A DNA stretch of 55,264 nt from a virus (lineage: Duplodnaviria; Caudoviricetes), in the IMG/VR virus record IMGVR_UViG_3300029309_000054, positions 1 through 55,264 of that record; one strand, given 5' to 3'. Shown here one piece after another: positions 21,455 to 48,099 of this stretch; position 1 is the stretch's first letter, and every line of letters starts with the position of its first letter. A model generated the notes under the pieces. It ran no database searches. It was given only the letters and a program-made list of their open reading frames with translations, and was not told the origin of the DNA. The position numbers were made by a program, and so were the translations under genes.

Positions 21455-23009
21455 AATATTTCGCATCTACGGTCCGCCCGGCACCGGTAAGACTACCGCG
21501 CTGCTCAACAAAGTGGACGAAGCTCTTAGTAACGGCGTAGATCCTGCACATATCGGTTACTTTGCCTTCACTCGTCAAGCCGCTAACGAGGCGGTTGAAC
21601 GCGCCTGTAAACGCTTCAACCTTGAGCCCACGCAACTGCCGTGGTTCCGCACATTGCACAGCTTCGCTCTGCGCCTGTCGGGCATCCGCCAAGAACAGGT
21701 GATGCAGACAGAGCACTACAAAGAGCTGGGCCACGCTATCGGGTTTGACCTGACTGCTGGCGGACAGGGCATGAGTGAAGACGATGCTTTCGACCTGACC
21801 AAGAATGACAACCCGGTCATCAGCCTCATCAACCTAGCCCGCCTTCGCAAGGTCACCCTGCGTGAAGAATATGACGAAAGCGGCATGGGCATGGATTGGA
21901 ACCGGGTTAAGTACATTGCCGACAGCCTGACCGAATACAAAAACCGGTTTCAGCTTTACGATTTCACGGACATGTTAGAGGTGTTTGTGCGTGAAGGCGC
22001 GGAGTTCTGCCCTCGTCTTGCAATCACATTTATCGACGAGGCGCAGGACTTATCGCCATTGCAGTGGGACGTAGCTCACATACTTGAGCAGAGCTCCGAG
22101 CGCATCTACTGCGCTGGAGATGACGACCAAGCGATCTACCGTTGGGCCGGTGCAGATGTAGAACACTTCATCAACCTGAACGGCGGCTATGAGGTGCTTG
22201 AGCAATCGCACCGCGTTCCTGCTTCCGTGCACCCGCTAGCTGAGCGCGTAGCCAAACGGATCAAACGCCGCGTACCAAAGACCTACCTGCCTCGTAAGGA
22301 CCCGGGGCTGGTGGAGCGCGTACCTGACGTAGGTTATCTGGATTTTAATGAGGGATCGTGGCTCGTGCTGGCGCAAGCCGGTTACTTCCTAGCACCCGTG
22401 ACCCAAGAACTCAAAAGCCGAGGCATCCTCTACAGCTATCGCGGACGGAGGTCCATTTCCGAGAGACTGAGTGATGCCATCAATGGCTGGGAGCAAATGA
22501 GAAAGGGTCACCGAATAACCGGTGCAGCCGCACGAGCCGTCTATAGTTATATGTCTGTCGGTGAGCGGGTCAAGCGCGGATTCAAAAAACTACCCGGACT
22601 CGATGACGACGAGACCGTGTCACTCGATGAGCTGATCGCGCATCACGGCCTTATGGAACTGGTGCACATCATGGGCACCCCTCGCATCGAGGAAAACATC
22701 CGGGACTGCATCTGGCACGAAGCTATGGACAAGCTGCCCAGTGCCGACCGTGCGTATATCACGGCACTACTGCGTCGGGGTGAAAAGTTCAATGCCGTGC
22801 CCCGGATAGAACTGTCCACGATTCACGGCTCCAAGGGTGGTGAGGCCGACAATGTCGTCTTGTTTACCGATCTATCGCCCGCAGCAGCACGAGCCGCTGA
22901 GCAGGCTCCGGATGATCTGCACCGGGTGTTTTATGTGGGCGTCACACGCACCAAAGAGAACCTGTATCTAGTAGACCCCGAGGATGACAACAGGAGCTAT
23001 TTGATATGA
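21441..23009 (+). CDS. UvrD/Rep-like SF1 helicase
   Basis: GPPGTGKT, IDEAQD, GDDDQAIY, STIHGSKGGEAD and YVGVTR motifs. Confidence 0.93.
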   Translation: MEKNKIFRIYGPPGTGKTTALLNKVDEALSNGVDPAHIGYFAFTRQAANEAVERACKRFNLEPTQLPWFRTLHSFALRLSGIRQEQVMQTEHYKELGHAIGFDLTAGGQGMSEDDAFDLTKNDNPVISLINLARLRKVTLREEYDESGMGMDWNRVKYIADSLTEYKNRFQLYDFTDMLEVFVREGAEFCPRLAITFIDEAQDLSPLQWDVAHILEQSSERIYCAGDDDQAIYRWAGADVEHFINLNGGYEVLEQSHRVPASVHPLAERVAKRIKRRVPKTYLPRKDPGLVERVPDVGYLDFNEGSWLVLAQAGYFLAPVTQELKSRGILYSYRGRRSISERLSDAINGWEQMRKGHRITGAAARAVYSYMSVGERVKRGFKKLPGLDDDETVSLDELIAHHGLMELVHIMGTPRIEENIRDCIWHEAMDKLPSADRAYITALLRRGEKFNAVPRIELSTIHGSKGGEADNVVLFTDLSPAAARAAEQAPDDLHRVFYVGVTRTKENLYLVDPEDDNRSYLI

Positions 23010-23137
23010 GCCTCTTATTTCATTTTACATATGAGTGCGTTTGCGGAAACGTCTGGAAATGCTGGAACGTCCGATATGCAAAAGACGAGTGCCAGAAATG
23101 TAGACGACATGTCAGCCCGAAGGACAAGGTCCAATGA
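23006..23137 (+). CDS. Small Zn-ribbon protein, 43 aa (not in ORF track)
   Basis: CxC...CxxC; ATGA overlaps at both ends. Confidence 0.6.
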   Translation: MSLLFHFTYECVCGNVWKCWNVRYAKDECQKCRRHVSPKDKVQ

Positions 23138-23424
23138 ACCGCAAAGAGATACTTGAGAAGGCAGAGAGCTTGGTCAACGGCCCTCGGGCCCAAGACTACG
23201 GTGATGCCTACGACAACCATGAGCGCATAGCCCAGATGTGGTCTGTTCTGCTCGACACCGACGTAAGTGTCTCACAAGTCTACCAATGTATGGTTGCGGT
23301 CAAGCTGGCAAGGCTTATAGTGACGCCAGACCACGAAGATAGCTGGATAGATATCTGCGGCTATGGCGCACTAGGAGGAGAAGGCAATGGCCTTACAGAT
23401 GGCGATGTTCGCACCAAAGAGTGA
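23134..23424 (+). CDS. DUF6378-like protein
   Basis: RAQDYGDA...RIAQMWS...KLAR...HEDSWIDICGY motif. Confidence 0.75.
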   Translation: MNRKEILEKAESLVNGPRAQDYGDAYDNHERIAQMWSVLLDTDVSVSQVYQCMVAVKLARLIVTPDHEDSWIDICGYGALGGEGNGLTDGDVRTKE

Positions 23425-25279
23425 GTGGGTTCCGCCCGCTGAGCTGCCAGACATCTTCGACGCCAAGCAGATCGCTATCGACGTTGAGACCAGAGACCCC
23501 AACATCAAGTCCAACGGCCCCGGCTGGCCGACAGGTGACGGTGAGGTGGTGGGCTATGCCGTAGCAGTTGACGGCTGGTCTGGCTACATACCTATCCGCC
23601 ACCTTGGCGGCGGCAACCTCGACGAGCGCATCGTCAACAAATGGCTCAAGAAAGTATTCGAGTGCCCCGCCGACAAGATCATGCACAACGCCCAGTACGA
23701 CGCGGGCTGGATCAAACAGATGGGCTTTACCATCAACGGGCGCATCATCGACACCATGCTGATCGCATCCTTGCTGGACGAGAACCGGTTCAGCTACAGT
23801 CTCAATGCTCTGTCCTACGACCTGCTGGGTGAGGTAAAGCAGGAGCGCACACTACAGGACGCGGCCCGCGAGTTTGGTCTCGATCCAAAAGCTGAGATGT
23901 GGAAGATGCCCGCTATGTATGTCGGGCCCTACGCACAGGTAGATGCGGAGCTGACACTCAAGCTCTGGAACCACCTGTCCGCACAACTGACCCAAGAACA
24001 GCTTTGGCCGATTGCCAACCTTGAGCTCAAGCTCCTGCCGTGTCTGATAGACATGACATGGCGCGGCGTCCGTGTTGATCAAGATCGTGTCGAGCGCACC
24101 CGCAACCACCTGATCAAGGAAGAGAAGGCCACGCTTGCCAAGATCAAGCACGTAGCTGGTCAGGATGTAGAGCTCTGGGCCGCAGCATCGATTGCAAAAG
24201 CCTTCGATAAGCTTAGCATCCCTTACCCGCGCACCGAGAAGAACGCCCCGTCCTTCACCAAGTCGTTTCTGGCGGACCACCCGCATGAGCTCGCGCAACT
24301 AATCGTCCGGGCCCGCAACCTGAACAAGACCAGCGGCACCTTCATCAACACCATTATGAAGCACTGCCATGCAGACGGACGCATCCATGGTCACATCAAC
24401 CAGATCAGATCGGATGACGGCGGCACCGTTTCGGGCCGCATATCCATGTCCAACCCCAACTTGCAACAAATCCCGGCCCGCGATCCTGAGCTCGGCCCCA
24501 TGATACGCAGCCTGTTTCTGCCGGAAGAGGGTGAGCAGTGGGCGGCGATTGATTTCTCGCAGCAGGAACCACGGATCTTGGTTCATTATGCTTATGTGTA
24601 TGGCCGGTCCCGCGGCGCACAGATGGCAGGAGTCGAGGAGTTTGTTACCGCTTACCGCGAGGACCCAGACATGGACTTCCACACCATGGTGGCAGAGATG
24701 GCTAACATCCCGCGTAAGCAGGCCAAAACAATTAATCTGGGCATGATGTACGGCATGGGCGTCAACAAGCTGTCCGACCAGCTCGACATCGATGTAGATG
24801 AAGCCAAAGGACTAGTCGGCCAGTACCACGACCGCGTCCCGTTTGTTAAGGGACTAATGAACGGCGTGATGAACAGCCTCAACAGCCGGGGCTCAAGCGG
24901 CTCTGTCCGCTCCATACTGGGCCGCAAGTGCCGGTTTAATCTCTGGGAGCCCGCGACCTTTGCCATGCACAAGGCACTGCCGTACCAAGATGCGCTCAAA
25001 GAGTACGGTGAGACCACCCGGTTGAAGCGGGCATACACCTACAAAGCTTTGAACCGTCTCATCCAAGCGTCGGCTGCGGACATGACCAAGCAGGCCATGG
25101 TGAATATTTATGAACAGGGACGCCTGCCCTTGGTGCAAATCCACGATGAAATCGCCATGTCCGTGAAAAACCGTGAAGATGCAAATACTGTTGCTGAAAT
25201 TATGGAAAATGCTGTACCGTTGGAGGTGCCAAGTAAATGCGATGTTGAGATCGGCCCAAGCTGGGGCGAAGCAAGCTAA
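23387..25279 (+). CDS. polA: Family A DNA polymerase with 3'-5' exonuclease
   Basis: Exonuclease motifs DVET, HNAQYD, YAQVD; motif A DFSQQEPR; motif B KTINLGMMYG; motif C QIHDE. Confidence 0.96.
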   Translation: MALQMAMFAPKSEWVPPAELPDIFDAKQIAIDVETRDPNIKSNGPGWPTGDGEVVGYAVAVDGWSGYIPIRHLGGGNLDERIVNKWLKKVFECPADKIMHNAQYDAGWIKQMGFTINGRIIDTMLIASLLDENRFSYSLNALSYDLLGEVKQERTLQDAAREFGLDPKAEMWKMPAMYVGPYAQVDAELTLKLWNHLSAQLTQEQLWPIANLELKLLPCLIDMTWRGVRVDQDRVERTRNHLIKEEKATLAKIKHVAGQDVELWAAASIAKAFDKLSIPYPRTEKNAPSFTKSFLADHPHELAQLIVRARNLNKTSGTFINTIMKHCHADGRIHGHINQIRSDDGGTVSGRISMSNPNLQQIPARDPELGPMIRSLFLPEEGEQWAAIDFSQQEPRILVHYAYVYGRSRGAQMAGVEEFVTAYREDPDMDFHTMVAEMANIPRKQAKTINLGMMYGMGVNKLSDQLDIDVDEAKGLVGQYHDRVPFVKGLMNGVMNSLNSRGSSGSVRSILGRKCRFNLWEPATFAMHKALPYQDALKEYGETTRLKRAYTYKALNRLIQASAADMTKQAMVNIYEQGRLPLVQIHDEIAMSVKNREDANTVAEIMENAVPLEVPSKCDVEIGPSWGEAS

Positions 25280-25616: not shown

Positions 25617-26021
25617 ATGTCTTATCTAAAACATCTTTTCGAGGCCATCGACCAAATGGCAAGCGAATTTGGGGACACGCCGCCAACCAGTGTCAAAACT
25701 GTCACCGCTCTGTCCGTGCTTTGTCAGATTGATATCGAAAAACTTGAGGCTAAGAAGACCCTTGGTGAGCACAAGCCGCTTATGCAAAACCCCGAAGAAA
25801 TGGCGAAAGCTCTTGAGCCCGTCATGCGGGTCAAAGGAAATGTGGTGAAAAAAAGGAGATGGAAGCGGAAATATTGCTTATACTCAGGGGAGCGCCTGAC
25901 TGGGAAGCAGCGCAAGTTTGCTTCTCGGAAATATGCTCAAGCTTACTGGAAGGAGCACAACCGGGACAAGGTGAACGCTTACCAGAAGAAGTGGCAACAA
26001 AAGAAGAAGAAAGATGCTTGA
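25617..26021 (+). CDS. Hypothetical protein with basic C-terminus
   Basis: Own TTGACA promoter; ACGGGAG RBS. Confidence 0.65.
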   Translation: MSYLKHLFEAIDQMASEFGDTPPTSVKTVTALSVLCQIDIEKLEAKKTLGEHKPLMQNPEEMAKALEPVMRVKGNVVKKRRWKRKYCLYSGERLTGKQRKFASRKYAQAYWKEHNRDKVNAYQKKWQQKKKKDA

Positions 26022-26442
26022 TGCAGCTTTAGTCTGTCTCGCTACGGCGGTCTACTTTGAGTCCAGAGGCGAACCTTTCGTCGGACAGTCCGCCGTAGCC
26101 CACGTTGTGTTGAACCGGGTGAACGACACTCGGTTCCCCGACGACGTTTGCTCCGTCGTTAAACAGGGCCCCACCTACTCTTGGAAACCTGATTTCCCTA
26201 TTCGTAACATGTGCCAATTCAGTTACTATTGTGACGGCAAGTCTGACATGCCAACCGAAGAAGAAGCATGGCAGTCCGCGGTCCTCGCGGCTTTTGGAGC
26301 TATGACTGAACGCACTTATGACCCCACCGACGGCGCAACTCACTATCATGCTGATTATGTCCAGCCAGAATGGGCCGCAGTCAAATACAAAACTGTTCGC
26401 ATCAACGATCATATTTTTTACAAATGGGAGGGCAACCGATGA
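26014..26442 (+). CDS. Cell-wall hydrolase, SleB/Hydrolase_2 family
   Basis: CLATAVYFESRGE, VAHVVLNRV, CQFS, GATHYHADYV and HIFY motifs. Confidence 0.92.
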   Translation: MLDAALVCLATAVYFESRGEPFVGQSAVAHVVLNRVNDTRFPDDVCSVVKQGPTYSWKPDFPIRNMCQFSYYCDGKSDMPTEEEAWQSAVLAAFGAMTERTYDPTDGATHYHADYVQPEWAAVKYKTVRINDHIFYKWEGNR

Positions 26443-26833: not shown

Positions 26834-26861
26834 TTGACTATGTATAGGATAAGTCTTATAT
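26834..26861 (+). promoter_or_regulatory. Sigma70-like promoter with operator-like box (copy 1)
   Basis: TTGACTATGTATAGGATAAGTCTTATAT; 25/28 identical to 27885-27912. Confidence 0.7.
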
Positions 26862-26886
26862 GTGGGCTGAACCACGGGAGTTTCTC

Positions 26887-27888
26887 ATGCTCATCTATTT
26901 AGCCACCAATAAGATTAACGGTATGCAATATGTCGGAGCCACGACTCGGAGCTCACTTGCACCCAGAGTGCGGGAACACTTTAAGTTTGCGGAAAGAAAA
27001 ACCAGAGCACGGGGATCGTTAGCAAACGCCATACGAAAGTACGGCCAAAAAAATATTTCTTTTGAAGTGTTAGAGCGCGTAACCGATATCAATGTTTTAG
27101 GCGAATGCGAGAAGAGGTGGATTGACAACCTAAATACGATGTACCCAAACGGGTATAACATTAAGACAGGGGGTATGCCTAAAGAGATGCCTCATGTCAG
27201 CCGAAACAAAAGCTACACCGTTGAAGGTGTGCAATATGACAGCTTAATGTCTTTAGCGGATGCTTATGACATGTGCCATTACAAACTTAGGCATCGTCTG
27301 TTGCGCTCTTCTATCAAATGGTCTGTAGAACAGGCGTTGGATCTAGCCCCGCCTCCAAAAAGCGACCCCGTAAAATACTGCAAACCTTTAGAGGTAGACG
27401 GGCATACCTTTCGTTCAAAGGCCGCCGCCGCTCGACATTATGGTGTTCCGGTAAGAGTTTTTAGAGCAAGACTTGGTAAGGGCTGGCCGTTAAAAGAGGC
27501 TCTGGGCATAAAAGAACGACCAAACCAGTGTAAAACGGGGACTACTAATAAAAAACGGCCTCTCAGAAAAACGCGGATCACGGTTCAAGGCACTGAGTAT
27601 TATAGCGTAGCTCATGCCGCAGAAACTTTAGGAACAAAAGCTGGTCTTGTAACTCAACGACTCAAGCGAGGATGGACAAAAGAACAAGCTTTTGGTTTAG
27701 CCCCGCCGCCGGTTATCAAAAAGAGGGGAATGGAGTTTCTTGGATATTCTTCCATAACAGCCGCGGCAAAAGAAAATAACATCAACACCACCACGCTTTT
27801 TCAAAGGTTGAATAACGGCTGGTCGCCGGAAGATGCGCTGTACACACCAATAACTCCAAATGACGGAAGCAGGCGTTGGACTGCTTGA
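26887..27888 (+). CDS. GIY-YIG homing endonuclease with repeated C-terminal DNA-binding modules
   Basis: LIYLATNKINGMQYVG, conserved R, E and GYN; repeated S(l/k)AAAA...RLxxGWxxExA modules. Confidence 0.88.
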   Translation: MLIYLATNKINGMQYVGATTRSSLAPRVREHFKFAERKTRARGSLANAIRKYGQKNISFEVLERVTDINVLGECEKRWIDNLNTMYPNGYNIKTGGMPKEMPHVSRNKSYTVEGVQYDSLMSLADAYDMCHYKLRHRLLRSSIKWSVEQALDLAPPPKSDPVKYCKPLEVDGHTFRSKAAAARHYGVPVRVFRARLGKGWPLKEALGIKERPNQCKTGTTNKKRPLRKTRITVQGTEYYSVAHAAETLGTKAGLVTQRLKRGWTKEQAFGLAPPPVIKKRGMEFLGYSSITAAAKENNINTTTLFQRLNNGWSPEDALYTPITPNDGSRRWTA

Positions 27889-30763: not shown

Positions 30764-31378
30764 ATGCCCTCAAAAGCTGTCGTGAAGAAAGAAACCCGGG
30801 GCCGTAAGCGAGCCACCGTCAATCACCCGCTGACCCGCAAGCAAGAGCTTTTTGTAAAGGAACTGGTCAGTAAGGACGGCCAGATTACTTTGAGAGAGGC
30901 GGCTATCAATGCTGGTTACTCTGCCACGTCGGCTCACACGCGGGCATATGAACTGACCAATCCAAACATTTCGCCGCATGTCGTGGCGGCCATTCAGTCC
31001 TATCGACGCGAACTGGACGAAAAGTACGGAATCACGTTTCATCGGCATATCCGTGATCTTCAAAATATTCGGGATCTAGCCTTGCAAAACGGCGCTTACT
31101 CTGCCGCCGTTCAAGCGGAATATCGCCGGGGTCAAGCGCAGGGCGACATCTATGTAAGCAAATCTGAAATCCGTCATGGGTCTATCGACAGCATGAGCAA
31201 GGACGAGGTCTTGAAAGCTTTGGAAGAGATAAAGGACAGTTATGCCCCAATCACCATCGACATCACACCCGAAGAGAAAAACACCGGTAATCGCGACAAA
31301 GCGAGAGGGCGGCTTTTACAAGCAAGTGAAGGAAGCGGCGCAGAGGTCGAACAGGAAATTATTACTGACCCGAATTGA
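30764..31378 (+). CDS. terS: Terminase small subunit
   Basis: LTRKQELFVKE...AAINAGYS...AYEL N-terminal HTH motif of phage TerS. Confidence 0.8.
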   Translation: MPSKAVVKKETRGRKRATVNHPLTRKQELFVKELVSKDGQITLREAAINAGYSATSAHTRAYELTNPNISPHVVAAIQSYRRELDEKYGITFHRHIRDLQNIRDLALQNGAYSAAVQAEYRRGQAQGDIYVSKSEIRHGSIDSMSKDEVLKALEEIKDSYAPITIDITPEEKNTGNRDKARGRLLQASEGSGAEVEQEIITDPN

Positions 31379-31703
31379 AAACTGGGTTGGCGCAGGGATA
31401 CCGGACCTTTTGATATGTGATGAGGTCGGGGACTTTCATCTGGTTGAACTTAAATACATCACCGGTAATGCGGTGACATTGCGCCCGTCACAAGTGGCGT
31501 GGCTATCTCGACACCAGCACTCTAGTTGCTGGGTTCTAATCAAGCGACAAACCAAGGCCACCGAGCCATCCGAGTGCCTTTTGTACCCGGCAGCGGCAGC
31601 GGTCGATTTGAAGATGGACGGCATTGAGAAGGTCGAGCCTTTGTTTCGTTGTCAACAGCCTTTTCACTGGGACACAATATTTGGCTTGATATGTCCGACA
31701 TAA
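31242..31703 (+). CDS. PD-(D/E)XK nuclease, VRR-NUC / junction-resolvase-like
   Basis: RIENWVGAGIPDL...VELK...LRPSQVAW; start position uncertain. Confidence 0.75.
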   Translation: MPQSPSTSHPKRKTPVIATKREGGFYKQVKEAAQRSNRKLLLTRIENWVGAGIPDLLICDEVGDFHLVELKYITGNAVTLRPSQVAWLSRHQHSSCWVLIKRQTKATEPSECLLYPAAAAVDLKMDGIEKVEPLFRCQQPFHWDTIFGLICPT

Positions 31704-31751
31704 TCCCATAATAATGGGACATCGTTAATCAACTATGGGAGTAAGAGCGAT

Positions 31752-32099
31752 ATGGTAGAGGACAAACAAACCTTGCTTGCTTGGCTGGCAAATGCCTTGA
31801 AAGATTCACCTGTGGACTTTTTAGAGGTTTATGTCGGAGATGAAAAGGACGGTCAAGTTTATGTGCGTTTTGAAAACGTACCGGAGAGGGAAAAAATGAA
31901 AAAGTATAACAGCGTTGCATATCTTCCCTTTTCCATTCATCACGACCGGGAAAACGGCGAAGATATAACCCCGGAAATGTTGCGCGAAGCTTTCAATAAT
32001 CGAACCCTGACCCTGTCGAATCAGGAATTATGGGAAGCTTGCGGCGGGGATTGCTACGACACAATCGAAAATGAACCTTTAGCGGAAGCTTCCGCCTGA
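31752..32099 (+). CDS. Hypothetical protein, possibly two fused small genes
   Basis: Own promoter and RBS; internal in-frame GGAGAGGG RBS plus ATG at 31896. Confidence 0.6.
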   Translation: MVEDKQTLLAWLANALKDSPVDFLEVYVGDEKDGQVYVRFENVPEREKMKKYNSVAYLPFSIHHDRENGEDITPEMLREAFNNRTLTLSNQELWEACGGDCYDTIENEPLAEASA

Positions 32100-32194
32100 T
32101 GTTTATTTTGCACTGGATTGCCCGTCTGATACATGGCGAAGACTGGGAAAAACACACAACACAACGCCGACGGGTTCGGCGTCGTCGCCGATAA
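32099..32194 (+). CDS. 31-aa peptide with Arg-rich tail (not in ORF track)
   Basis: MFILHWIARLIHGEDWEKHTTQRRRVRRRRR*; TGATG coupling; followed by a terminator. Confidence 0.5.
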   Translation: MFILHWIARLIHGEDWEKHTTQRRRVRRRRR

Positions 32195-32202
32195 CCTAAC
32201 TA

Positions 32203-32230
32203 GCCCCGCCAATATCTGGCGGGGTTTTTT
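32203..32230 (+). terminator. Intrinsic terminator
   Basis: GCCCCGCCA-ATATC-TGGCGGGGT-TTTTT. Confidence 0.8.
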
Positions 32231-32289
32231 CTTGCAATGGTATGCGATAAGGCCCATATAAAAGACAACTGAAACGAACGGGGGCAATC

Positions 32290-32508
32290 ATGCCGAAAAT
32301 CAATCACGAAAAAATCGCGCTTTATTTAGAAAAACTGGTCGTCGGTTGGGATGAAGAACTGGCCCGGGAAATGGTCGAAAATATGACGCCCGAAGAACGG
32401 GCGCATTTATCCCGGCTGATCGATATATGCCGTGATCCGGATTATCAATCGTTAATTAGCGATTACGCCGCGTTAAACCGTCCTGAAGAAAAACCCGAAC
32501 CAGCTTAA
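32290..32508 (+). CDS. Hypothetical protein (single-gene cassette)
   Basis: Promoter TTGCAA with a TATGCGATAA box upstream; terminator downstream. Confidence 0.65.
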   Translation: MPKINHEKIALYLEKLVVGWDEELAREMVENMTPEERAHLSRLIDICRDPDYQSLISDYAALNRPEEKPEPA

Positions 32509-32510
32509 CA

Positions 32511-32544
32511 ACTGGCCCGCCCTGACCGGCGGGCCTTTTCTTTT
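32511..32544 (+). terminator. Intrinsic terminator, duplicated at 34676-34709
   Basis: ACTGGCCCGCCCTGACCGGCGGGCCTTTTCTTTT. Confidence 0.8.
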
Positions 32545-32617
32545 AAAATTTCTATTTGCCAAAATATGCGAATATATGAGATAAGCAAAACAGATATAAA
32601 CAACGGGAACAAAAACG

Positions 32618-33352
32618 ATGTTAAAAACTGTAGAGCTAAGCACGGCGAAAAAGACTAGCGGTTGCGCCGTAACCTATCGCGCCGGGTCAGCTAATAAATT
32701 TGATACTTGCCCGGCATCTTGCAAGCTTAACCCTAGCGGGCGCGGTTGCGGCGCTGGCGAAATTGACCACGACTATCTGGACGCTGTATTGGACGCGAAA
32801 CCGAAACGGGGGTTTTCGTTTGGTTATTCTCATTTTGATCCGTTATTTTGGGCGCACAAATTGCGGGCGGGCAAAACGGTTTTAAATTACAGCGCCGACA
32901 GTCTGGCCGCCGCCTATGCTATTTTTTCAAACAAGGTCGCGCCGGTTGTCGTCGTCGTAAAGGATAGTTTTTGGAAGAATGGCAAAAACGCCACAATAGA
33001 CCGCGACGACATGCCGACGCCGCCGGTTCCGGTTATACGTTGCCCGGCGGAATATAACCCGGCGGTAAATTGCCGGAATTGCGGGGCGGAAAAAGGGCCA
33101 TTGTGCGCCCGTCTGGACCGGTCTTTTATCGTCGGATTTACAGCACACGGGGCCAGCAAGAAAAAGGCCGCAACCGACGACCCGGGCGGATGCTATGCCG
33201 CTGGCGGCAATGTCGCGTTGCATTGGCAGGCGACGACCGAAACGCCAGACACTGGCGAAACTGACGGCGAAAAGCTTTTGCGGTTTGCCCGGGGGTTGCC
33301 GCCCGGTTCTGTATTGCGCCACCATATCGCCGGGGATATTGGCCGCGAATAG
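32618..33352 (+). CDS. Cys-rich protein, Gp88-like (possible Fe-S / radical-SAM-related)
   Basis: TCPASC, CPAE...CRNC...LC, GGCYA and RHHIAGD motifs. Confidence 0.6.
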   Translation: MLKTVELSTAKKTSGCAVTYRAGSANKFDTCPASCKLNPSGRGCGAGEIDHDYLDAVLDAKPKRGFSFGYSHFDPLFWAHKLRAGKTVLNYSADSLAAAYAIFSNKVAPVVVVVKDSFWKNGKNATIDRDDMPTPPVPVIRCPAEYNPAVNCRNCGAEKGPLCARLDRSFIVGFTAHGASKKKAATDDPGGCYAAGGNVALHWQATTETPDTGETDGEKLLRFARGLPPGSVLRHHIAGDIGRE

Positions 33353-33373
33353 CTGGCCCCGTACTGGCCCCCG

Positions 33374-33401
33374 AAACCCCGCCCGCTGGCGGGGTTTTTT
33401 T
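33374..33401 (+). terminator. Intrinsic terminator
   Basis: AAACCCCGCC-CGCT-GGCGGGGTTT-TTTT. Confidence 0.8.
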
Positions 33402-33516
33402 GGTCTGAAAGAAAATTTAAAAATTTCTAGACATATATAGGCCAAAATGCGATAAACCGCATATGGCCCTTTTTTCAGGGGTTCGGGCCGCCCCACAATT
33501 ACGGGAAACCAAAACG

Positions 33517-34656
33517 ATGAACCACAATATTGAAAACAGCAAAAACACCTTAACCCGCCTTTTGGAAAAGGTGCGCGACGACGCGGCCAGAAAGGCCGAC
33601 TATATTGCGCCGACGCATGAATTGCAGAAGACGACCGGCGACGACGGGACGGCCCGCATCACAATAGAGCAAAGCCGGGGCGTGCCGACTAAAGAGCTGG
33701 TCGTTAATCCGGTCGCGTTCGGGCAAATGGCCAGCGATGCGGGAATTGACGTCCGGACGGCCCGCCGGTTGCAAGAAAACTACGCCCCGCAATTCGATGG
33801 CCTGATAAATGCAATCTGGCAAAACGAGCCTAAGGTTCGCATGTTGCGGACGTTTGAAAACTACGCCCCGTTTTCTGATTTGGGCGAATGCCGGGCCATT
33901 GTGTCGGATAAGTTTAAGACGTTCGACCATGTAAACCTGTGCAATAGCGCCTTGCCCCAACTGATGGACAGCCCGGCGCAATTACAGGTTGTGAATGCCG
34001 AAATAACGGACCGCCGCCTTTATCTGCGTTTCCGGTCGCTGGTTCAAACTGGCGAAGGGGCGAACGTCGGCGACGTTATGGCGAACGGTATCGGCCTGCA
34101 AAACAGCGAAACGGGCGCGGGTTCGGTTTCGGTTTATCAGATTGCATGGACGCTGGCTTGTTTGAACGGGATGCAAACGCAAAACAAAACCCGGTCCAGC
34201 CACATCACCAGCGCCCGCGATAGCGACGATTGGGGCCTGTTGTCGGACGCCGCAAAAGATGCCGACAACCATGCACTAGAATTGAAAATCCGCGATCTAG
34301 TCGGCGTTTATTCTAGCCGGGACGCGTTTGACGGCGTACTGGACGCCATGCGGGCCGCCGCTGGCGACGTGATTGACGGCGAGGCAATCGACAAAACCGA
34401 CGTTGTGCAAAATTTGGGCAAGGTAATGCAACTGACCAAAAAAGAAACGGGCGACGTTTTAAACGGGTTGCTGGATACCATCGGCCAAGCCGGTTACGAA
34501 AACGACCGGCCCCTGTCCCGGGCGACGTTGGTTAATGCCGTGACGGCGGTTGCCAATAAAGCCGACGCCGACGATGTCGACATGTGGCAGGCCCGGGGTG
34601 GCCAGCTGCTGGCCATGAAGCCCGCCGATTGGGGACGGGTCGCCGTCGCCGCATAG
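33517..34656 (+). CDS. DUF932-like protein
   Basis: RAIVSDKF and GIGLQNSETGAGSVSV...LACLNGM match the DUF932-type NS-G...CxNG motif; ATG 33517 follows an ACGGGAA RBS. Confidence 0.75.
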   Translation: MNHNIENSKNTLTRLLEKVRDDAARKADYIAPTHELQKTTGDDGTARITIEQSRGVPTKELVVNPVAFGQMASDAGIDVRTARRLQENYAPQFDGLINAIWQNEPKVRMLRTFENYAPFSDLGECRAIVSDKFKTFDHVNLCNSALPQLMDSPAQLQVVNAEITDRRLYLRFRSLVQTGEGANVGDVMANGIGLQNSETGAGSVSVYQIAWTLACLNGMQTQNKTRSSHITSARDSDDWGLLSDAAKDADNHALELKIRDLVGVYSSRDAFDGVLDAMRAAAGDVIDGEAIDKTDVVQNLGKVMQLTKKETGDVLNGLLDTIGQAGYENDRPLSRATLVNAVTAVANKADADDVDMWQARGGQLLAMKPADWGRVAVAA

Positions 34657-34675
34657 CTGGCCCTCTAACCTTCAC

Positions 34676-34709
34676 ACTGGCCCGCCCTAACCGGCGGGCC
34701 TTTTCTTTT
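34676..34709 (+). terminator. Intrinsic terminator, copy of 32511-32544
   Basis: 33/34 identical to 32511-32544. Confidence 0.8.
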
Positions 34710-34763
34710 GTGGGAATATATGCGACAACGGGGCATCACTAACTGATAACGGGAATAAAACAG

Positions 34764-35084
34764 ATGATAAATAAAATCATATTTGGCGACCATCAAATCC
34801 CCGTCTGGCATGATAAAGACGGCGTTCGGCATTGGTTGGACGGGTCGGCGACATATGCTGCCGATAAAGACGGCGACGTTATGCGATTGGTCCCCCTCGG
34901 TTGGCAAGCCGCTGGCGATTTAGTGAAGCGAAAGCCTGACGCGAAAACCGTTTACGTCGTCAATTTTCGCGAACGCAAAAAGCCGGGCAAGCCTGCGGTC
35001 TATTCGCTTTCCCCGTTTGACGATATGAACCGGGAAATTTTCCTGAAAGAAACGACGCCCGTTTACGTCGGTTTTACGTTCTAG
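34764..35084 (+). CDS. Hypothetical protein (single-gene cassette)
   Basis: TATGCGACAA box and ACGGGAA RBS upstream; terminator downstream. Confidence 0.7.
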   Translation: MINKIIFGDHQIPVWHDKDGVRHWLDGSATYAADKDGDVMRLVPLGWQAAGDLVKRKPDAKTVYVVNFRERKKPGKPAVYSLSPFDDMNREIFLKETTPVYVGFTF

Positions 35085-35112
35085 CCCCTACGCCGCCCGC
35101 TGGCGGCTTTTC

Positions 35113-35148
35113 GCCCCCGTTAGGCTATCACCCTAGCGGGGGTTTTTT
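35113..35148 (+). terminator. Intrinsic terminator
   Basis: GCCCCCGTTAGG-N7-CCTAGCGGGGGT-TTTTT. Confidence 0.75.
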
Positions 35149-35271
35149 CTTGCCTACTGGCGGCCCCTGTATGCGCCATTAATGCCAGTTAATCATGCCC
35201 CGGGCCGCCGCCCGTAACCTATCCAAAACGTACCGGGGGCAATCCGGGCCGGTATCTTTTAAAATTTTAAC

Positions 35272-35397
35272 GCCGGGCGGTCCGCCGGTCGCGGTCGCCG
35301 GGTCGTCGGTCCGGGGTCGCCGGGTCGCGTTTCATGGCCCGCCGGTCGCGGTCGCCGGGTCGCGCTGCGCGGTCCGCCGGTCGCGGTTCGGGTCCCT
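35272..35397. repeat. GC-rich GGTC-periodic repeat (candidate pac/terminus region)
   Basis: CCGCCGGTCGCGGTCGCCGGGTCG at 35282 and 35339, partial at 35374; GGTC recurs every 6-7 nt; lies just upstream of terL. Confidence 0.6.
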
Positions 35398-35526
35398 TCC
35401 CATATCGGGTCAAAATCCGCAGAAAACCGCCAAAAAATCGCAAAAAATCGCGCCGCGGCCACGGGCTCTAGCTACGCAGGCAAGGGCCATGTTTCTGACA
35501 AATAATCCTGTAAAAAACGATATGGA

Positions 35527-35542
35527 TGTTTCACGTGAAACA
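35527..35542. promoter_or_regulatory. parS: parS centromere-like site
   Basis: TGTTTCACGTGAAACA, an exact match to the bacterial chromosomal parS consensus; intergenic. Confidence 0.85.
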
Positions 35543-35634
35543 TTGCCTAATTATTAGGCAGATGCTCAATACTTGTTCACTGTCTAATAATTGTGCATAT
35601 TTTCGCAGACATTTTGTGCACACAGGGGCCCCCG

Positions 35635-37080
35635 ATGGATATTTCGGAACAGCAGGCAAAGTTGCAGCTACGACTAGCGCAACTTGAAAAGAATGAAGCT
35701 TGTCAGGAAAAGTTTCTTACTTTTGTAAAAGTCATGTGGCCCGAGTTCATCGCTGGGCGGCACCATAAAATTATCGCTGAAAAGTTAGAGAGAGTGGCCA
35801 ATGGTGATCTCAAGCGCCTGATCATCAACATGGCCCCGAGGCACACGAAGTCTGAGTTCGCATCCTTTTTGTTCCCGGCGTGGATGATGGGCAAGAATCC
35901 AAAGATGAAGATCATTCAGGCTACCCACACGACGGAACTTGCGGTTAACTTTGGACGTAAGACGAAGAACTTGATTGACAGTGACGAGTACAAGGAGGTC
36001 TTTCCGAATGTCAAACTCGCTTCTGATAGTAAAGCTTCTGGTCGTTGGGACACTGCTTCTGGCGGGATGTACTACGCCGTGGGGGTGGGATCCAACCTTG
36101 CCGGGCGTGGTGGCGACTTGGTAATTATCGATGATCCACACTCGGAGCAGACGGCCATGTCGGCCAACGGTTTTGACGATGCGTGGGATTGGTACACCGG
36201 GGGCCCCCGGCAGCGTCTCCAGCCGGGCGGCAGTATAGTTCTGGTTCAAACCCGGTGGTCCGAGAAGGACATGACGGGTCAGTTGCTCCGTGCAATGGCT
36301 AAAGATCCGCTAGCTGATCAGTGGGAAGTTGTGGAGCTTCCTGCCATTTTTGACGACGACAAGCCTTGTTGGCCGGAGTTCTGGTCCCTTGAGGATCTGA
36401 CCGCGGTCAAAGCATCCATCCCTCCGAGCAAATGGAACGCGCAGTATCAGCAGAATCCGACGGGCGAGGAGAATGCGATCATTCCTCGTCAGTGGTGGAA
36501 GAAGTGGGAGAAGGACAACATCCCGAATCTGGAGTATGTGATCCAGAGCTACGACACGGCGTTCTCGAAACGCGAAACTGCTGACTACTCGGCGATCACG
36601 ACTTGGGGTGTTTTCAGGCCAGAGGAGATTGGGGGCCCTCCGGGACTCATACTTTTGGACAGCACGAAGGGGCGGTGGGATTTTCCTGAGCTCAAGCAGA
36701 CGGCTATGGAGCAGTATAAGTATTGGGACCCCGACACCGTCATCGTAGAGGCCAAGGCTTCTGGTCTGCCTTTGACCCATGAATTACGAAATATGGGAAT
36801 CCCTGTTGTTAACTTTACGCCTAGTAAGGGTAATGATAAGGTTACGCGAGTTCACTCTGTATCGCCGTTGTTTGAGGCGGGCATGGTTTGGGCCCCCGAC
36901 ACCACCTTCGCCGATGAGATGATTGAGGAGGTGGCGGCGTTCCCTAACGGGGAGCATGACGACTTGGTCGATAGCATGACGCAGGCTTTGATGCGTTATC
37001 GGCAGGGCAACTTTGTACAGTTGCCGACTGACGATTGGGACGAAGAGGACACGGGAATGCAGGTTAGGGCTTATTACTGA
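35635..37080 (+). CDS. terL: Terminase large subunit
   Basis: APRHTKS Walker A, IIDDPH Walker B, QTRW, QSYDTA and HDDLVDS nuclease motifs. Confidence 0.96.
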   Translation: MDISEQQAKLQLRLAQLEKNEACQEKFLTFVKVMWPEFIAGRHHKIIAEKLERVANGDLKRLIINMAPRHTKSEFASFLFPAWMMGKNPKMKIIQATHTTELAVNFGRKTKNLIDSDEYKEVFPNVKLASDSKASGRWDTASGGMYYAVGVGSNLAGRGGDLVIIDDPHSEQTAMSANGFDDAWDWYTGGPRQRLQPGGSIVLVQTRWSEKDMTGQLLRAMAKDPLADQWEVVELPAIFDDDKPCWPEFWSLEDLTAVKASIPPSKWNAQYQQNPTGEENAIIPRQWWKKWEKDNIPNLEYVIQSYDTAFSKRETADYSAITTWGVFRPEEIGGPPGLILLDSTKGRWDFPELKQTAMEQYKYWDPDTVIVEAKASGLPLTHELRNMGIPVVNFTPSKGNDKVTRVHSVSPLFEAGMVWAPDTTFADEMIEEVAAFPNGEHDDLVDSMTQALMRYRQGNFVQLPTDDWDEEDTGMQVRAYY

Positions 37081-41791: not shown

Positions 41792-42187
41792 ATGCTGCAA
41801 GCACTGATTGGACCCGTAACGGGGATTCTGGACAAGTTCATCGAGGACAAGGATCAGAAAGCGAAGTTGGCTCACGAAATAGCCACCATGGCGGAAAAAC
41901 ACGCTCACGAAGCCAACATGGGGCAAATAGAGATCAACAAGGCAGAGGCACAGCATAGGTCTGTGTTTGTCGCCGGTTGGCGACCTTTCCTTGGCTGGGG
42001 ACTAGCAACGGCCATGATATGGCACTTTGTTTTAGCGCCGGTTACCATGTTTGGTTTTGCATATGCGGGCATGGAAGCCCCGGACTTGCCAACATTTGAC
42101 ATGGACAGCTTGATGACTGTTCTGTTAGGCATGTTGGGTCTTGGCGGTCTTAGGACCGTAGAAAAGGTCAAGGGTCTTACAAAGTAA
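41792..42187 (+). CDS. Holin, 3TM (GTA-holin-like)
   Basis: FVAGWRPFLGW and LLGMLGLGGLRTVEK motifs; directly upstream of the endolysin. Confidence 0.85.
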   Translation: MLQALIGPVTGILDKFIEDKDQKAKLAHEIATMAEKHAHEANMGQIEINKAEAQHRSVFVAGWRPFLGWGLATAMIWHFVLAPVTMFGFAYAGMEAPDLPTFDMDSLMTVLLGMLGLGGLRTVEKVKGLTK

Positions 42188-42711
42188 TGGAAGCAAACTT
42201 CTTCAAAAGCCTTGAGATGGTGCTGAAGCACGAGGGCGGTTTTGTGGATCATCCGGAAGATCCGGGTGGCGCAACCAACAAGGGGATTACGCACAAGACG
42301 TATTCTGACTTCCTTGGTCGCCCGCTAGAGGATGTAGGCGAACTCCAGAATATTCCAGATGACCATGTAGAGCTGATTTACAAACAGGGCTACTGGGATA
42401 AGGTCAAGGGGGACCAGCTCCCCTCGGGCGTAGACTTTTGTACCTTTGATTGGAGCGTGAACAGCGGTCCGGGACGCGCGGCTAAAGCTTTGCAGAAAAC
42501 TGTAATGGTTTCGCAAGACGGAGCGATTGGTCCGCGGACGTTAGCTGCGGTTGAAGAGAAAGACCCGATGCAGATCATCGAGGAAGTAACAGCAGAGCGG
42601 GAACAATTCTATCGCTCTTTGCGGACGTTTGAGACGTTTGGCAAGGGTTGGTTACGTCGAAATGATGAGACATGCGAGTATGCTTTGTTGCTCGCGGGAG
42701 GTATGACATAA
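42187..42711 (+). CDS. Endolysin, glycoside hydrolase family 108 with PG-binding domain
   Basis: HEGGFVDHPEDPGGATNKGIT, FDWSVNSG, DGAIGPRT and FGKGWLRR motifs. Confidence 0.93.
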   Translation: MEANFFKSLEMVLKHEGGFVDHPEDPGGATNKGITHKTYSDFLGRPLEDVGELQNIPDDHVELIYKQGYWDKVKGDQLPSGVDFCTFDWSVNSGPGRAAKALQKTVMVSQDGAIGPRTLAAVEEKDPMQIIEEVTAEREQFYRSLRTFETFGKGWLRRNDETCEYALLLAGGMT

Positions 42712-46444: not shown

Positions 46445-46927
46445 ATGGCTTCCACTACTTTTTCAGGTCCCGTGACCTCTACTGCCGGTTTCATTTCGGG
46501 ATCGGATTCTCTTGTTTCTGTAACTGCTAACGTAACGCTGACCGCTGCTGCTAACGCGGGTCGTACAATGGTTTTGGGCGTAGCAAGCGGCGCGACTGTT
46601 ACTCTTCCGGCGGCTAGCGGGACAGGCAACATTTACCGGTTCTTTGTGTCCACCACGGTCACTTCTAACAACTACATCATTCAAGTCGCTAATGGCGATG
46701 ACACAATGGCTGGTGTAGCGATTGTGGCTAATGATTCGGACAACTCTGCATCCATCTTTGAAACCGCTGCAACGAGTGATACGATCACAATGAACGGTAC
46801 GACTACCGGTGGTCTTCTCGGAGCTACGGTTGAGATTCAGGACGTAGCGTCAAATGTCTTCTCAGTTGTATCTCGCGGCGCAGCAACAGGCACCGAAGCT
46901 ACTCCTTTCTCTGCCGCTGTATCGTAA
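46445..46927 (+). CDS. Virion structural protein (head fibre/decoration-like)
   Basis: MASTTFSGPV; TVTLPAASGTG; EATPFS C-terminus. Confidence 0.7.
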   Translation: MASTTFSGPVTSTAGFISGSDSLVSVTANVTLTAAANAGRTMVLGVASGATVTLPAASGTGNIYRFFVSTTVTSNNYIIQVANGDDTMAGVAIVANDSDNSASIFETAATSDTITMNGTTTGGLLGATVEIQDVASNVFSVVSRGAATGTEATPFSAAVS

Positions 46928-46937
46928 GAGGCTTATC

Positions 46938-47012
46938 ATGGGTAAGCTTAACGGCGGCAAGAAGCCGGTTAAAAAGACCGTAAAAAAGGCTTCAAAAAAG
47001 AAAGAGGGGTAA
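46938..47012 (+). CDS. 24-aa Lys-rich peptide (not in ORF track)
   Basis: MGKLNGGKKPVKKTVKKASKKKEG*; AGAGG RBS. Confidence 0.5.
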   Translation: MGKLNGGKKPVKKTVKKASKKKEG

Positions 47013-47015
47013 GTT

Positions 47016-47288
47016 ATGGCAGGTTCTGACGTAAGAACGAAACGGGTCACCGGCACGGGTTCCCTCGCGGTTGGTCCTGCTCGTATTCGGCAGATCCAGT
47101 TGAAAACTGCATCTGGAACTCCACGGCTCACTGTTACAGATGGTTCTGGCGGCGCTACAGTCCTTGATTTGGATTTTAACGCTTCAGACACACACTCTGT
47201 GAACATTCCTGCTGAAGGTATCAGGGTGACCGATATTTTTGTCGGCACCTTAACTAACATTACCGCAGTGACGTTCTTTTTTAATTAG
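47016..47288 (+). CDS. Small virion protein
   Basis: GAGGGG RBS; beta-rich; IPAEGIR motif. Confidence 0.7.
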   Translation: MAGSDVRTKRVTGTGSLAVGPARIRQIQLKTASGTPRLTVTDGSGGATVLDLDFNASDTHSVNIPAEGIRVTDIFVGTLTNITAVTFFFN

Positions 47289-47295
47289 GTGATCT

Positions 47296-47580
47296 ATGGC
47301 TTCGCGTGATGATAAAATGCCGAAGCGAAACAAAAAAAATTTCCGCCCCACTAAAGCTGGGGCGGGGATGACTAAAGCCGGGGTAGCAGCGTATCGAAGG
47401 AAAAATCCCGGCTCTAAGCTTAAAACCGCTGTCACAGGCAAAGTTAAGCCCGGAAGTAAGGATGCAAAACGTAGGAAGTCTTTCTGCGCTCGTTCTGCTG
47501 GACAAATGAAAAAATTTCCTAAAGCCGCAAAAAATCCAAACAGTCGTTTGCGGCAGGCTCGTAAAAGGTGGAAGTGCTGA
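47296..47580 (+). CDS. Small basic protein (DUF6321-like)
   Basis: GMTKAGVAAYRRKNPGSKLK...RRKSFCARS...RWKC. Confidence 0.75.
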   Translation: MASRDDKMPKRNKKNFRPTKAGAGMTKAGVAAYRRKNPGSKLKTAVTGKVKPGSKDAKRRKSFCARSAGQMKKFPKAAKNPNSRLRQARKRWKC

Positions 47581-47971: not shown

Positions 47972-48099
47972 TGGCTCTGACGAAATCCAAAAAGAACAAG
48001 GTTCGCAAAGTTGTTAAGGGGTTGAACAAAGCTTCTAAATTACACGCTAGCCAAGCAAAAACTTTGAAAAGTGTTTTGGGTAAAAAGAAGTCGGGCTAA
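47971..48099 (+). CDS. Small basic protein, 42 aa (not in ORF track)
   Basis: KVRKVVKGLNKASKLHASQAKTL; TAATG coupling at both ends. Confidence 0.65.
   Translation: MALTKSKKNKVRKVVKGLNKASKLHASQAKTLKSVLGKKKSG

Follow-up and report, generated by a model that had tools for sequence, protein, structure and literature searches.

A segment nearly free of GAG and CTC next to the terL gene in a tailed phage genome and its relatives

Results

A 3.6-kb block almost devoid of GAG and CTC

The virus genome IMGVR_UViG_3300029309_000054 (Duplodnaviria; Caudoviricetes), an IMG/VR virus record of 55,264 bp that is classed as linear and has a CheckV completeness estimate of 95 %, contains a segment of 3575 bp (positions 31890-35464, GC content 0.544) that is nearly free of the trinucleotide GAG and its complement CTC. 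We call this segment, which lies between the genes of the small (terS) and the large (terL) terminase subunit, the block, and the whole record the window. The block holds 6 GAG and 3 CTC, compared to 864 and 560 in the window, exactly as had been counted by hand in an initial annotation of the sequence. The roughly 110 occurrences which that annotation expected at uniform composition are close to our computed values of 121 from base composition and 98 from the rest of the window; a first-order Markov model gives 48. The density of GAG+CTC is 2.5 per kb in the block and 27.4 per kb elsewhere in the phage. In the flanks it amounts to 26.0 per kb in the terS gene and to 29.6 per kb in the terL gene, where GAG had already been described as abundant.

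We scanned the 32 strand-symmetric trinucleotides in every interval of 3575 bp at a step of 250, scoring depletion by a Poisson P, which is the kind of sliding k-mer analysis that the initial annotation had proposed. The most extreme local depletion of any trinucleotide is that of CTC/GAG at 32001-35575, with 11 occurrences observed and 97.7 expected (P 7.9e-29). The runner-up word, AAA/TTT, is depleted elsewhere in the genome, at 21501-25075, a likewise GC-rich region with the helicase and DNA polymerase genes, where it reaches 0.44 of what is expected (P 9e-17). All four of the longest gaps without GAG/CTC in the genome (838, 692, 570 and 555 bp) are inside the block, and each of them is longer than 474 bp, the maximum over 200 Markov-2 simulations. 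In the same simulations no interval of 3575 bp ever had fewer than 56 occurrences of GAG/CTC.

The four-letter words GGAG and CTCC are absent from the block, compared to 226 and 94 copies across the window, and the avoidance of GGAG noted earlier for the ribosome-binding sites extends to the block as a whole, with leaders of the type GGGAAC-AAAAACG-ATG. Words that had been reported as present are indeed retained (CCGG 48 times, GGCC 37 times and GATC 4 times), and GANTC, of which no copy had been seen between 32101 and 35460, is absent over the longer interval from 32019 to 35894.

GAG/CTC is the extreme of a wider skew in the block. The ratio for AG/CT steps is 0.51 and the ratios for CAC/GTG, ACT/AGT and GTA/TAC are 0.34-0.38. 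AAAA/TTTT (5.6-fold) and CCG/CGG (1.8-fold) are over-represented, with AA/TT and CG likewise in excess, and run lengths are 2.5 for A/T and 3.0 for G/C in the block compared to 2.0 and 2.1 elsewhere. Mildly low densities of GAG+CTC (6.7-10.5 per kb) are also observed in a run of small open reading frames (ORFs) in the area 46500-49500 (47296-47580, 47738-47971 and 48495-48794), which a ferredoxin-like gene (48796-49473) adjoins.

Conservation among relatives

More than 130 contigs in IMG/VR encode the 379-amino-acid (aa) protein of the block at 67-79 % identity, and more than 599 encode TerL. The phage is a relative of podophages of HTVC023P type. The nearest isolates by TerL (55-64 % identity) are the Pelagibacter phages HTVC027P and HTVC023P and two unclassified marine phages, and no near-identical phage isolate was returned by megablast.

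The usual order in the relatives is terS, a VRR-NUC nuclease gene, the block and terL. Within the block, the gene of a DUF7227 protein and that of the 379-aa protein, a DUF932-like gene, occur either way round, and the small ORFs are variable. In an alternative layout (loci L144-L154) terS, VRR-NUC and terL are contiguous. VRR-NUC is directly beside terL in L144, L145, L146, L147, L149, L151, L153 and L154, and the DUF7227 gene is found upstream of terS wherever it is seen (L146, L147, L149 and L154). In the window, the GAG-poor DNA has its right limit at a perfect 16-bp palindrome, TGTTTCACGTGAAACA. Because the two layouts differ in the place of the terS/VRR-NUC pair relative to this palindrome, we conclude that the pair has moved relative to the block and the palindrome.

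The density of GAG+CTC in the block is less than half of that in the flanks for 38 of the 49 distinct loci. Of 50 blocks, 39 have CTC/GAG as their most depleted trinucleotide, with GTA/TAC, ACT/AGT and AGG/CCT next in rank, and L017 retains about 2 sites in 2.8 kb. We pooled 38 blocks (147 kb) and their flanks (285 kb) and found 8.45 sites per kb in the former compared to 25.8 per kb in the latter. Nine loci were excluded from this pool, namely the weakly depleted L082, L088, L090, L092 and L097 and the low-GC outliers L072, L150, L152 and L155. Accessory ORFs inside the blocks of relatives are also depleted. Blocks are further marked by perfect-stem terminators, which occur at 0.64 per kb (113 in 177 kb) compared to 0.07 per kb in the flanks (22 in 329 kb). 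Word avoidance was not found in the terS-terL region of HTVC027P.

GAG-poor DNA is located immediately upstream of the palindrome in both layouts; in the alternative one it is clear in L146 and L149 and weak in L147, L151 and L154. The depletion thus follows position, not gene, and it is conserved but graded in strength among the relatives. Since a protein identity of 67-79 % implies that synonymous sites are saturated, the avoidance is actively maintained.

Avoidance of a word in double-stranded DNA

Glutamate codons in the block are GAA in 89 % of the cases (n = 47) compared to 44 % in the rest of the phage, in agreement with the initial impression that glutamate is nearly always GAA. We asked how many sites would be expected given the proteins. 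When the five block proteins were kept fixed and their codons sampled according to the usage in 34 reference ORFs of this phage, the expectation for the five coding sequences was 71.2 +/- 6.7 GAG+CTC (minimum 50 of 1000); the actual number is 7. In a stricter null, codons were permuted synonymously within genes so that the codon usage of the block itself was retained; the expected number of out-of-frame GAG+CTC is then 21.8 +/- 3.7 (minimum 9 of 1000), compared to a single one in the actual sequences. Correction for codons and amino acids, under which the initial annotation had allowed that the depletion might lose its significance, thus leaves it in place.

Under the strict null, the sense-strand trinucleotides avoided most are CTC (z -4.7) and GAG (z -3.8); among the dinucleotide steps, these are CT (z -7.1) and AG (z -3.9), with TT, CG and AA in excess. 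In-frame glutamate codons account for five of the six GAGs that remain.

Non-coding DNA was found to be depleted as well. The intergenic bases of the block in the window (950) contain 2 sites, where 31 are expected from base composition and 11 from a first-order Markov model (Markov-1). The non-coding stretch 35144-35464, past the last terminator, contains none where the two models predict 11.9 and 3.5. Over 49 unique loci, the 300 nt before the palindrome contain 133 sites compared to 534 (base composition) or 247 (Markov-1) expected.

On the sense strand of the 38 pooled blocks, the block/flank ratios are 0.32 for GAG and 0.34 for CTC, 0.28 for GGAG and 0.11 for CTCC, and 0.07 for AGGAG and 0.08 for CTCCT. 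Taken together, these results show that the avoidance concerns a DNA word and is not a codon bias. Given the strand symmetry and the depletion in non-coding DNA, we conclude that its cause acts on double-stranded DNA.

Two simple physical or chemical causes were considered and set aside. The power at periods of 10-11.5 bp is no higher in the block than in other intervals, which argues against helical phasing or DNA curvature. A simple CT>TT / AG>AA or TC-type deamination was judged unlikely, as CT- and GA-words are affected too unequally and GAA is enriched.

Genes and cassette layout

The five genes of the block (Table 1) are all on the plus strand. Each is followed by a strong terminator and preceded by repeated upstream motifs and the leader GGGAAC-AAAAACG-ATG; promoters are represented by consensus-like predictions and by these repeated motifs. 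The block is accordingly a strain-variable set of autonomous gene cassettes. The ORF of 115 aa straddles the start of the void, having 5 GAG/CTC in its first 140 nt and 0 in the remainder. An internal ATG at 31896, with GGAGAGGG ahead of it, would yield a 67-aa product from this ORF.

Table 1. Features of the block and its flanks in the window
Feature	Position	Strand	Remarks
Small terminase subunit (terS) gene	30764..31378	+	Left flank; Pfam Terminase_2 E 1.7e-6; phrog_51
VRR-NUC nuclease gene	31242..31703	+	Pfam VRR_NUC E 8.5e-4 (below curated cut-off); phrog_2165, phrog_93
115-aa acidic ORF	31752..32099	+	Isoelectric point (pI) 4.4; straddles void start; no family match in Pfam, PHROGs, NCBIfam
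GAG/CTC-poor block	31890..35464	.	6 GAG, 3 CTC
Intrinsic terminator 1	32202..32226	+	
72-aa acidic protein gene	32290..32508	+	pI 4.7; no known family
Intrinsic terminator 2	32514..32535	+	97 % repeat of terminator 4 (family D4)
DUF7227 protein gene	32618..33352	+	244 aa; seven invariant Cys; Pfam PF23872, E 8.3e-29
Intrinsic terminator 3	33373..33398	+	
379-aa divergent DUF932-family protein gene	33517..34656	+	phrog_1362 E 1.4e-25
Intrinsic terminator 4	34679..34700	+	Family D4
106-aa basic protein gene	34764..35084	+	No known family; homologues in 15 related loci
Intrinsic terminator 5	35113..35143	+	12-bp stem; last ahead of non-coding GC-rich region
Non-coding region, counterpart of a relative's 301-bp terminal repeat	~35197..35488	.	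GC-rich direct repeats 35276-35402 (family D1)
Perfect 16-bp palindrome TGTTTCACGTGAAACA	35527..35542	.	1 match in the window; right limit of GAG-poor DNA
Large terminase (terL) gene	35593..37080	+	Right flank; phrog_38 E 1.2e-109; Terminase_6C

The DUF7227 protein belongs to PF23872 with 101.2 bits against a cut-off of 27 and has 1024 homologues. Its predicted model has a mean predicted local distance difference test (pLDDT) of 84.7; Foldseek gave no structural match at E <= 0.001, and the best VIA score is Z 3.8.

The family of the 379-aa protein comprises 2094 cluster representatives. The protein itself matches 0 Pfam families and stays below the threshold of PF06067 (DUF932). For comparison, 27 of 42 aligned homologues match PF06067, with a best E of 1.7e-11. 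By transitive homology it is thus a divergent DUF932 relative and not a direct member. In the predicted model (pLDDT 91.1), residues 25-132 form an OB-fold like those of domains that bind single-stranded DNA. This modelled domain resembles RPA, Teb1, SSB and PriB (Z 8.5 to 5), with Z 8.5-7.0 against Teb1/RPA at a root-mean-square deviation of ~3 over ~98 aligned residues (VIA-align). No part of the protein other than the OB domain obtained a score in VIA-align, and Foldseek returned no match for the protein at E <= 0.001. The predicted fold could be a first functional lead for DUF932. Residues that are invariant in the family are D28, Q70, R111, S130, N196-S197-E198, G202, C215, N217, H229, D260 and T343. 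A PADLOC match to PDC-M02B (E 0.0042, 14 bits) was too weak and was disregarded. Judged by title or abstract, none of the papers that a literature search listed for DUF932, DUF7227 and PF06067 was a functional study.

On the genome map, primase, helicases and DNA polymerase occupy 18.1-28 kb and are followed by terS, VRR-NUC, the block and terL. Downstream of terL are the portal, holin and endolysin, GroES and major head protein genes, and genes for tail and virion proteins wrap round to 16.4 kb. One helicase gene (16368-18014) is on the minus strand. Downstream of the replication genes and of a small endolysin-like ORF, an ORF of 342 aa (26860-27888) matches GIY-YIG and HNH homing-endonuclease families. 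There are two endolysin-like genes, one in the replication region (26014-26442) and one beside the holin (42187-42711). No tRNAs or Rfam RNAs were found in the window.

Boundaries of the block and genome ends

The variable region begins at about 31752 and its GAG-free part 140 bp further in. On the left, nucleotide homology with relatives stops just past VRR-NUC, at 31710-31751 (blastn end points). On the right, contigs of co-occurring strains diverge or have loose ends at 35480-35483. We estimated depth as the summed depth of contigs at >=90 % identity among the Logan contigs of 20 listed runs, in which uncovered parts are uninformative. Run X1 has a depth of 45-60 over the block compared to 200-330 over terL and portal, and runs X3 and X4 have 2-8 compared to 180-300. 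The block is therefore the strain-variable part of the genome.

The initial annotation had remarked on a sharp right boundary near a GC-rich repeat and a parS site. The boundary is sharp and does adjoin the GC-rich repeats and the palindrome, but it is demonstrably a recombination junction between strains, which explains its sharpness with no need for a terminus. Of 80 terL contigs, about 26 terminate in the 500 bp upstream of terL, at distances of 14 to 418 nt from the palindrome. We do not take this hot spot of contig ends as the sign of a terminus, because strain divergence from ~35480 accounts for it equally well.

An exact copy of the palindrome TGTTTCACGTGAAACA is present in 84 of 156 related loci, 43-143 bp before terL or, in the alternative layout, ~132 bp before terS. 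We take it to be the consensus of the chromosomal parS site. A PHROGs scan of 50 ORFs of the window turned up no ParB family, and a literature search judged by title brought nothing relevant on host-type parS in lytic phage genomes among the 15 of 20 papers listed. The palindrome could be a loading site for host ParB, a packaging site or an operator of the late operon.

One relative, a contig of 57,546 bp (the end of L027 and the start of L105), has an exact end overlap of 301 bp that covers the GC-rich stretch bounded by the last terminator and the palindrome. The window aligns partially to this repeat (35397-35488, 78 % identity). Among solved structures, TerL matches only T7-type terminases (8dgc, E 1.9e-5; 4bij, E 4e-4), the former presumably the terminase of a T7-like phage. 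The 301-bp repeat at the junction, the T7-type TerL matches and the short direct-repeat array at 35276-35402 suggest that the block is one end of the genome, with the linear order repeat-palindrome-terL ... block-repeat. Depth of contig pieces over the repeat region, an unreliable measure, is ~1.4-1.5x that of the neighbours in X1 and X3 and not in X5. In lambda and T7, packaging finishes, and ejection starts, with the end that lies away from the terminase genes. As the end formed by the block lies away from terL, the block would by the same rule enter the cell first.

Restriction-site avoidance and candidate hosts

The phage shows heavy classical restriction-site avoidance throughout its genome. 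Fourteen 6-bp palindromes have 0 copies in the window where 6-17 are expected (AACGTT, AGCGCT, AGGCCT, CAATTG, CGATCG, CGGCCG, CGTACG, CTGCAG, GCCGGC, GGCGCC, GGTACC, TCATGA, TGCGCA and TTCGAA), and 25 have an observed/expected ratio (o/e) below 0.35. In the pooled blocks of the relatives, GCCGGC is found once where 110 are expected and GGCGCC twice where 92 are expected, and the flanks behave likewise (GCCGGC o/e 0.0). A general avoidance of palindromes specific to the block was rejected, as GTAC and AGCT are the only 4-bp palindromes with lower frequencies than in the flanks, those of CCGG, GGCC, GCGC and CGCG being higher.

TerL relatives are present on contigs binned in two marine Verrucomicrobia metagenome-assembled genomes (MAGs; 92 % and 80 % identity) and in one Maricaulis MAG (75 %), loci L157-L159. 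Sequences of HTVC023P type have been noted in Verrucomicrobia single-cell genomes, according to a preprint (bioRxiv 10.1101/2019.12.14.876532). Binning makes Verrucomicrobia a possible, if weak, lead to the host. The cellular DNA of the two Verrucomicrobia MAGs has 27-43 GAG+CTC per kb and contains the palindromes that are missing from the phage. In trinucleotide profile, this DNA has a correlation of 0.56-0.62 with the non-block part of the phage and of 0.20-0.22 with the block. For these candidates we reject host-like composition as the origin of the block, since the correlation is 0.2 and their DNA is GAG-rich. HsdS domains were found in 31 of 61 genomes sampled from the candidate host family.

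Discussion

Proposed avoidance of defence motifs in first-exposed DNA

The explanation that we consider most probable, with somewhat less than even confidence, is that the phage avoids short defence motifs in a part of its genome only, the DNA that is exposed first. The block would be a strain-variable cassette module at the end of the packaged genome opposite terL, beside a short terminal repeat, and it would probably be exposed and expressed in the host before any other DNA of the phage. The loss of GAG/CTC, and the lesser loss of CAC/GTG, ACT/AGT, GTA/TAC and AGG/CCT, would be maintained by selection on double-stranded DNA. The selecting agent would be host defences that target DNA, and the words avoided would most plausibly be half-sites, 3-4 bp long, of Type I (or Type III/BREX-like) systems. 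The half-sites would matter only while the block is in the cell before phage counter-measures act. Palindromes of 6 bp read by Type II enzymes would kill anywhere and hence be purged genome-wide; sites of systems that are neutralised after early expression would need to be purged only in the block.

The initial annotation had proposed a leading region purged of a core shared by host target sites, against the background that first-entering DNA of phages such as T7 and T5 is depleted of restriction sites and carries anti-defence genes. This proposal is partly supported, by the avoidance of a word at the level of DNA, by the genome-wide avoidance of palindromes and by the position of the block next to a conserved site that heads the packaging operon. 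The terminal repeat of one relative at that place, the T7-type matches of TerL and the precedent of a Type I system (PMC12455610) point in the same direction. We infer from these points that the block is terminal, first-entering and early and that the agent is a restriction-type system. A role of the genes in anti-defence fares less well: the block proteins gave no credible functional match in Pfam, NCBIfam, PADLOC or PDB sequences and match no known defence or anti-defence family. The small acidic proteins and the predicted OB-fold are only suggestive of such a role. The identity of the first-entering end was likewise drawn from the example of lambda and T7. In HTVC027P, temporal classes are mosaic-like and the terS-terL genes are early or early-to-middle (PMC12753301).

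Several observations, including the lack of matches just mentioned, weigh against this explanation. Some concern the genome ends. The 301-bp overlap may be a real terminal repeat, or it may be a read-length artefact of a circular assembly. Among 51 loci with the landmark only this 57,546-bp relative ends there, five other near-complete relatives and the window carry the junction internally, and no overlap was found between the ends of the window. Moreover, the genes of the block are transcribed towards the putative end, so that entry driven by transcription from there, in the style of T7, would fail.

Other observations concern the relatives, the host and the word itself. The five weakly depleted loci (L082, L088, L090, L092 and L097) have 0.64-0.99 of the flank density and are the closest relatives by TerL (92-96 % identity), so the trait is not required by all members. 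The link to Verrucomicrobia comes by binning, and no match to HsdS was obtained in the MAG that holds a relative. Known restriction systems read 4-8 specified bases. No single known motif would call for the wholesale purge of a 3-mer, together with the broad skew and the over-representation of A-tracts and of words rich in CG. The loss of a word of 3 bp points either to numerous enzymes that have a GAG half-site in common or to a recogniser whose target is unusually short.

Alternative explanations

The composition may alternatively be intrinsic to foreign cassettes: recombining morons (see below) would carry a style that stems from mutational bias or history, and no target would be avoided. 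We regard this as unlikely, though it is the alternative to which we give the most weight. The block has its own terminators and a distinct composition, is inserted between genes that are contiguous in other relatives, and is swapped between strains at junctions near 31751 and 35480. The breadth of the skew, with longer A/T and G/C runs, the excess of AA/TT and CG and the loss of AG/CT steps (0.51), does look like style. Against it, the avoidance is kept in situ across lineages at 67-79 % protein identity, which is not what an unameliorated remnant would show, and the strength of the purge differs between close relatives. Words with CT are also affected unequally, with ratios of 0.07 for CTC and 0.72 for CTG in the block and a density of CTT at 0.73 of that of the flanks in the pooled blocks, unlike a simple CT>TT/AG>AA bias. 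No source with such a composition was found, the candidate hosts having 27-43 GAG+CTC per kb and a correlation of 0.2.

A slightly more doubtful alternative is a pressure of an undescribed kind. GAG/CTC would then be recognised as a 3-bp word on incoming DNA by an innate system of the marine hosts with an ultrashort target, or half-sites would be purged in response to Type I populations that shuffle one shared specificity domain. If such a pressure is true, terminal k-mer voids in uncultured phages could reveal both the first-entering end and the defence targets of unseen hosts.

We find it distinctly improbable that selection acts at the level of RNA or translation, with block mRNAs avoiding words like the Shine-Dalgarno (SD) sequence because of non-SD translation, a GGAG-type endoribonuclease or a ribosome-related change during infection. 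It is true that the most depleted 5- and 6-mers of the pooled blocks are SD-like (AGGAG/CTCCT at 0.07, GAGGAG at 0.04, ACGGAG 0 where 47 are expected), and that the block, with 0 GGAG, has leaders of the family D7 (GGGAAC-AAAAACG-ATG). In crude ORF sets, leaders of GGGAA type precede 41 of 196 block ORFs compared to 15 of 379 flank ORFs, and SD-like leaders 62 of 196 compared to 173 of 379. Yet the complementary words are as depleted on the sense strand (CTC 0.34, CTCC 0.11, CTCCT 0.08), and so is the non-coding DNA beyond the last terminator (0 sites compared to 11.9 or 3.5). In addition, the ratio of AGGAG is about the product of those of AGG, GGA and GAG (0.44 x 0.70 x 0.32), so that no special status of this word is needed.

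More improbable still is a form of self-immunity, in which an early nuclease or modifier of the phage attacks host DNA at GAG/CTC sites while only the DNA of the block is present. It predicts the same symmetric signature in the DNA of one segment as does the avoidance of defence motifs. A comparable idea is discussed for T5 A1 and first-step-transfer DNA in bioRxiv 10.1101/866236. The phage does encode VRR-NUC and the GIY-YIG/HNH homing-type endonuclease at 26860-27888, and the two main block proteins, one with an OB-fold predicted to resemble those that bind single-stranded DNA, are without known function. However, the block proteins yielded no match to a nuclease fold or family, the GAG-rich remainder of the genome would need a separate protection, the strength of depletion varies between close relatives with common flanking genes, and the T5 model is itself unproven.

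Avoidance of a CRISPR protospacer adjacent motif (PAM) of 3 nt, read on either strand and purged from a DNA end that is preferentially sampled or targeted, is very improbable since none of the common CRISPR types is known to have GAG/CTC for its main PAM and the familiar PAMs (GAA/TTC, GG/CC and TTT) are enriched in the block, even though a 2-3-nt motif avoided on both strands is the expected look and T5 is CRISPR-sensitive only in first-entering DNA.

Comparison with known systems

The avoidance of GAG/CTC differs from the genome-wide avoidance of palindromes, which is strong in this phage. The latter concerns 6-bp palindromes; the former is local, asymmetric in sequence and directed at 3 bp. 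Whole-genome tests for restriction avoidance can thus miss strong local signals.

Morons, a concept of Hendrix and colleagues, are said to be autonomous units of promoter, gene and terminator with an atypical composition, inserted between late genes of phages. They are usually single, sporadic and of benefit to the prophage. The block resembles them in its own terminators, its predicted promoter-like motifs, its atypical composition and its insertion between genes that are adjacent in relatives. Unlike morons, it is a conserved module of several genes at a fixed place with two core genes (DUF7227 and the DUF932-like gene), and its oddity is a maintained word avoidance and not a shift in GC.

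A further parallel is provided by the leading regions of conjugative plasmids, which consist of first-transferred DNA with ssb, psiB and anti-restriction genes and enter the cell single-stranded. DUF932 proteins occur on plasmids and integrative elements. Both cases would place early protective genes in first-exposed DNA, and the DUF932-like protein of the block has a predicted OB-fold like that of SSB. In contrast to plasmid leading regions, the block showed no protein with homology to the ArdA, PsiB or SSB families, and we know of no description of motif avoidance in those regions as a purge of a 3-mer.

If the void marks first-exposed DNA, it would allow the functional front end of uncultured phages to be located computationally and their early or anti-defence gene sets to be found, here DUF7227 and the DUF932-like OB-fold protein, both very widespread. 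It would also allow the target words of unstudied host defences to be inferred. Phages of HTVC023P type and their relatives are the most abundant known marine viral group according to bioRxiv 10.1101/2019.12.14.876532. Its conservation throughout a very abundant family of phages makes the observation stronger than the initial annotation supposed.

The closest parallels are phages in which the absence of a motif matters or occurs in one sub-genomic segment only, as in Murciavirus, T5 and the early region of T7. In the marine Murciavirus, a podophage, experiments showed that the Type I system Mme2I (AGAG-N6-GTG / CAC-N6-CTCT) restricts only if its motif is in the first-injected and most variable region (PMC12455610). 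That segment, like the block, varies more than any other part of the genome, and the words most depleted in the block occur within the half-sites AGAG and GTG. In T5, EcoRI and CRISPR act only on first-step-transfer DNA, according to bioRxiv 10.1101/866236. This first-entering DNA is described there as bounded by a region rich in repeats and palindromes; here GC-rich repeats and a palindrome adjoin the block. The order of entry is known in those phages and deduced here; unlike theirs, the genes of the block point to the putative end, and the block has no recognisable anti-restriction gene. Whereas single bipartite or 6-bp sites are missing in Murciavirus, T5 and T7, a trinucleotide is here cut about tenfold over 3.6 kb and family-wide. 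As a signature, the conserved loss of a 3-bp word from one segment is much stronger and more general than the absence of single sites in T5, T7 and Murciavirus.

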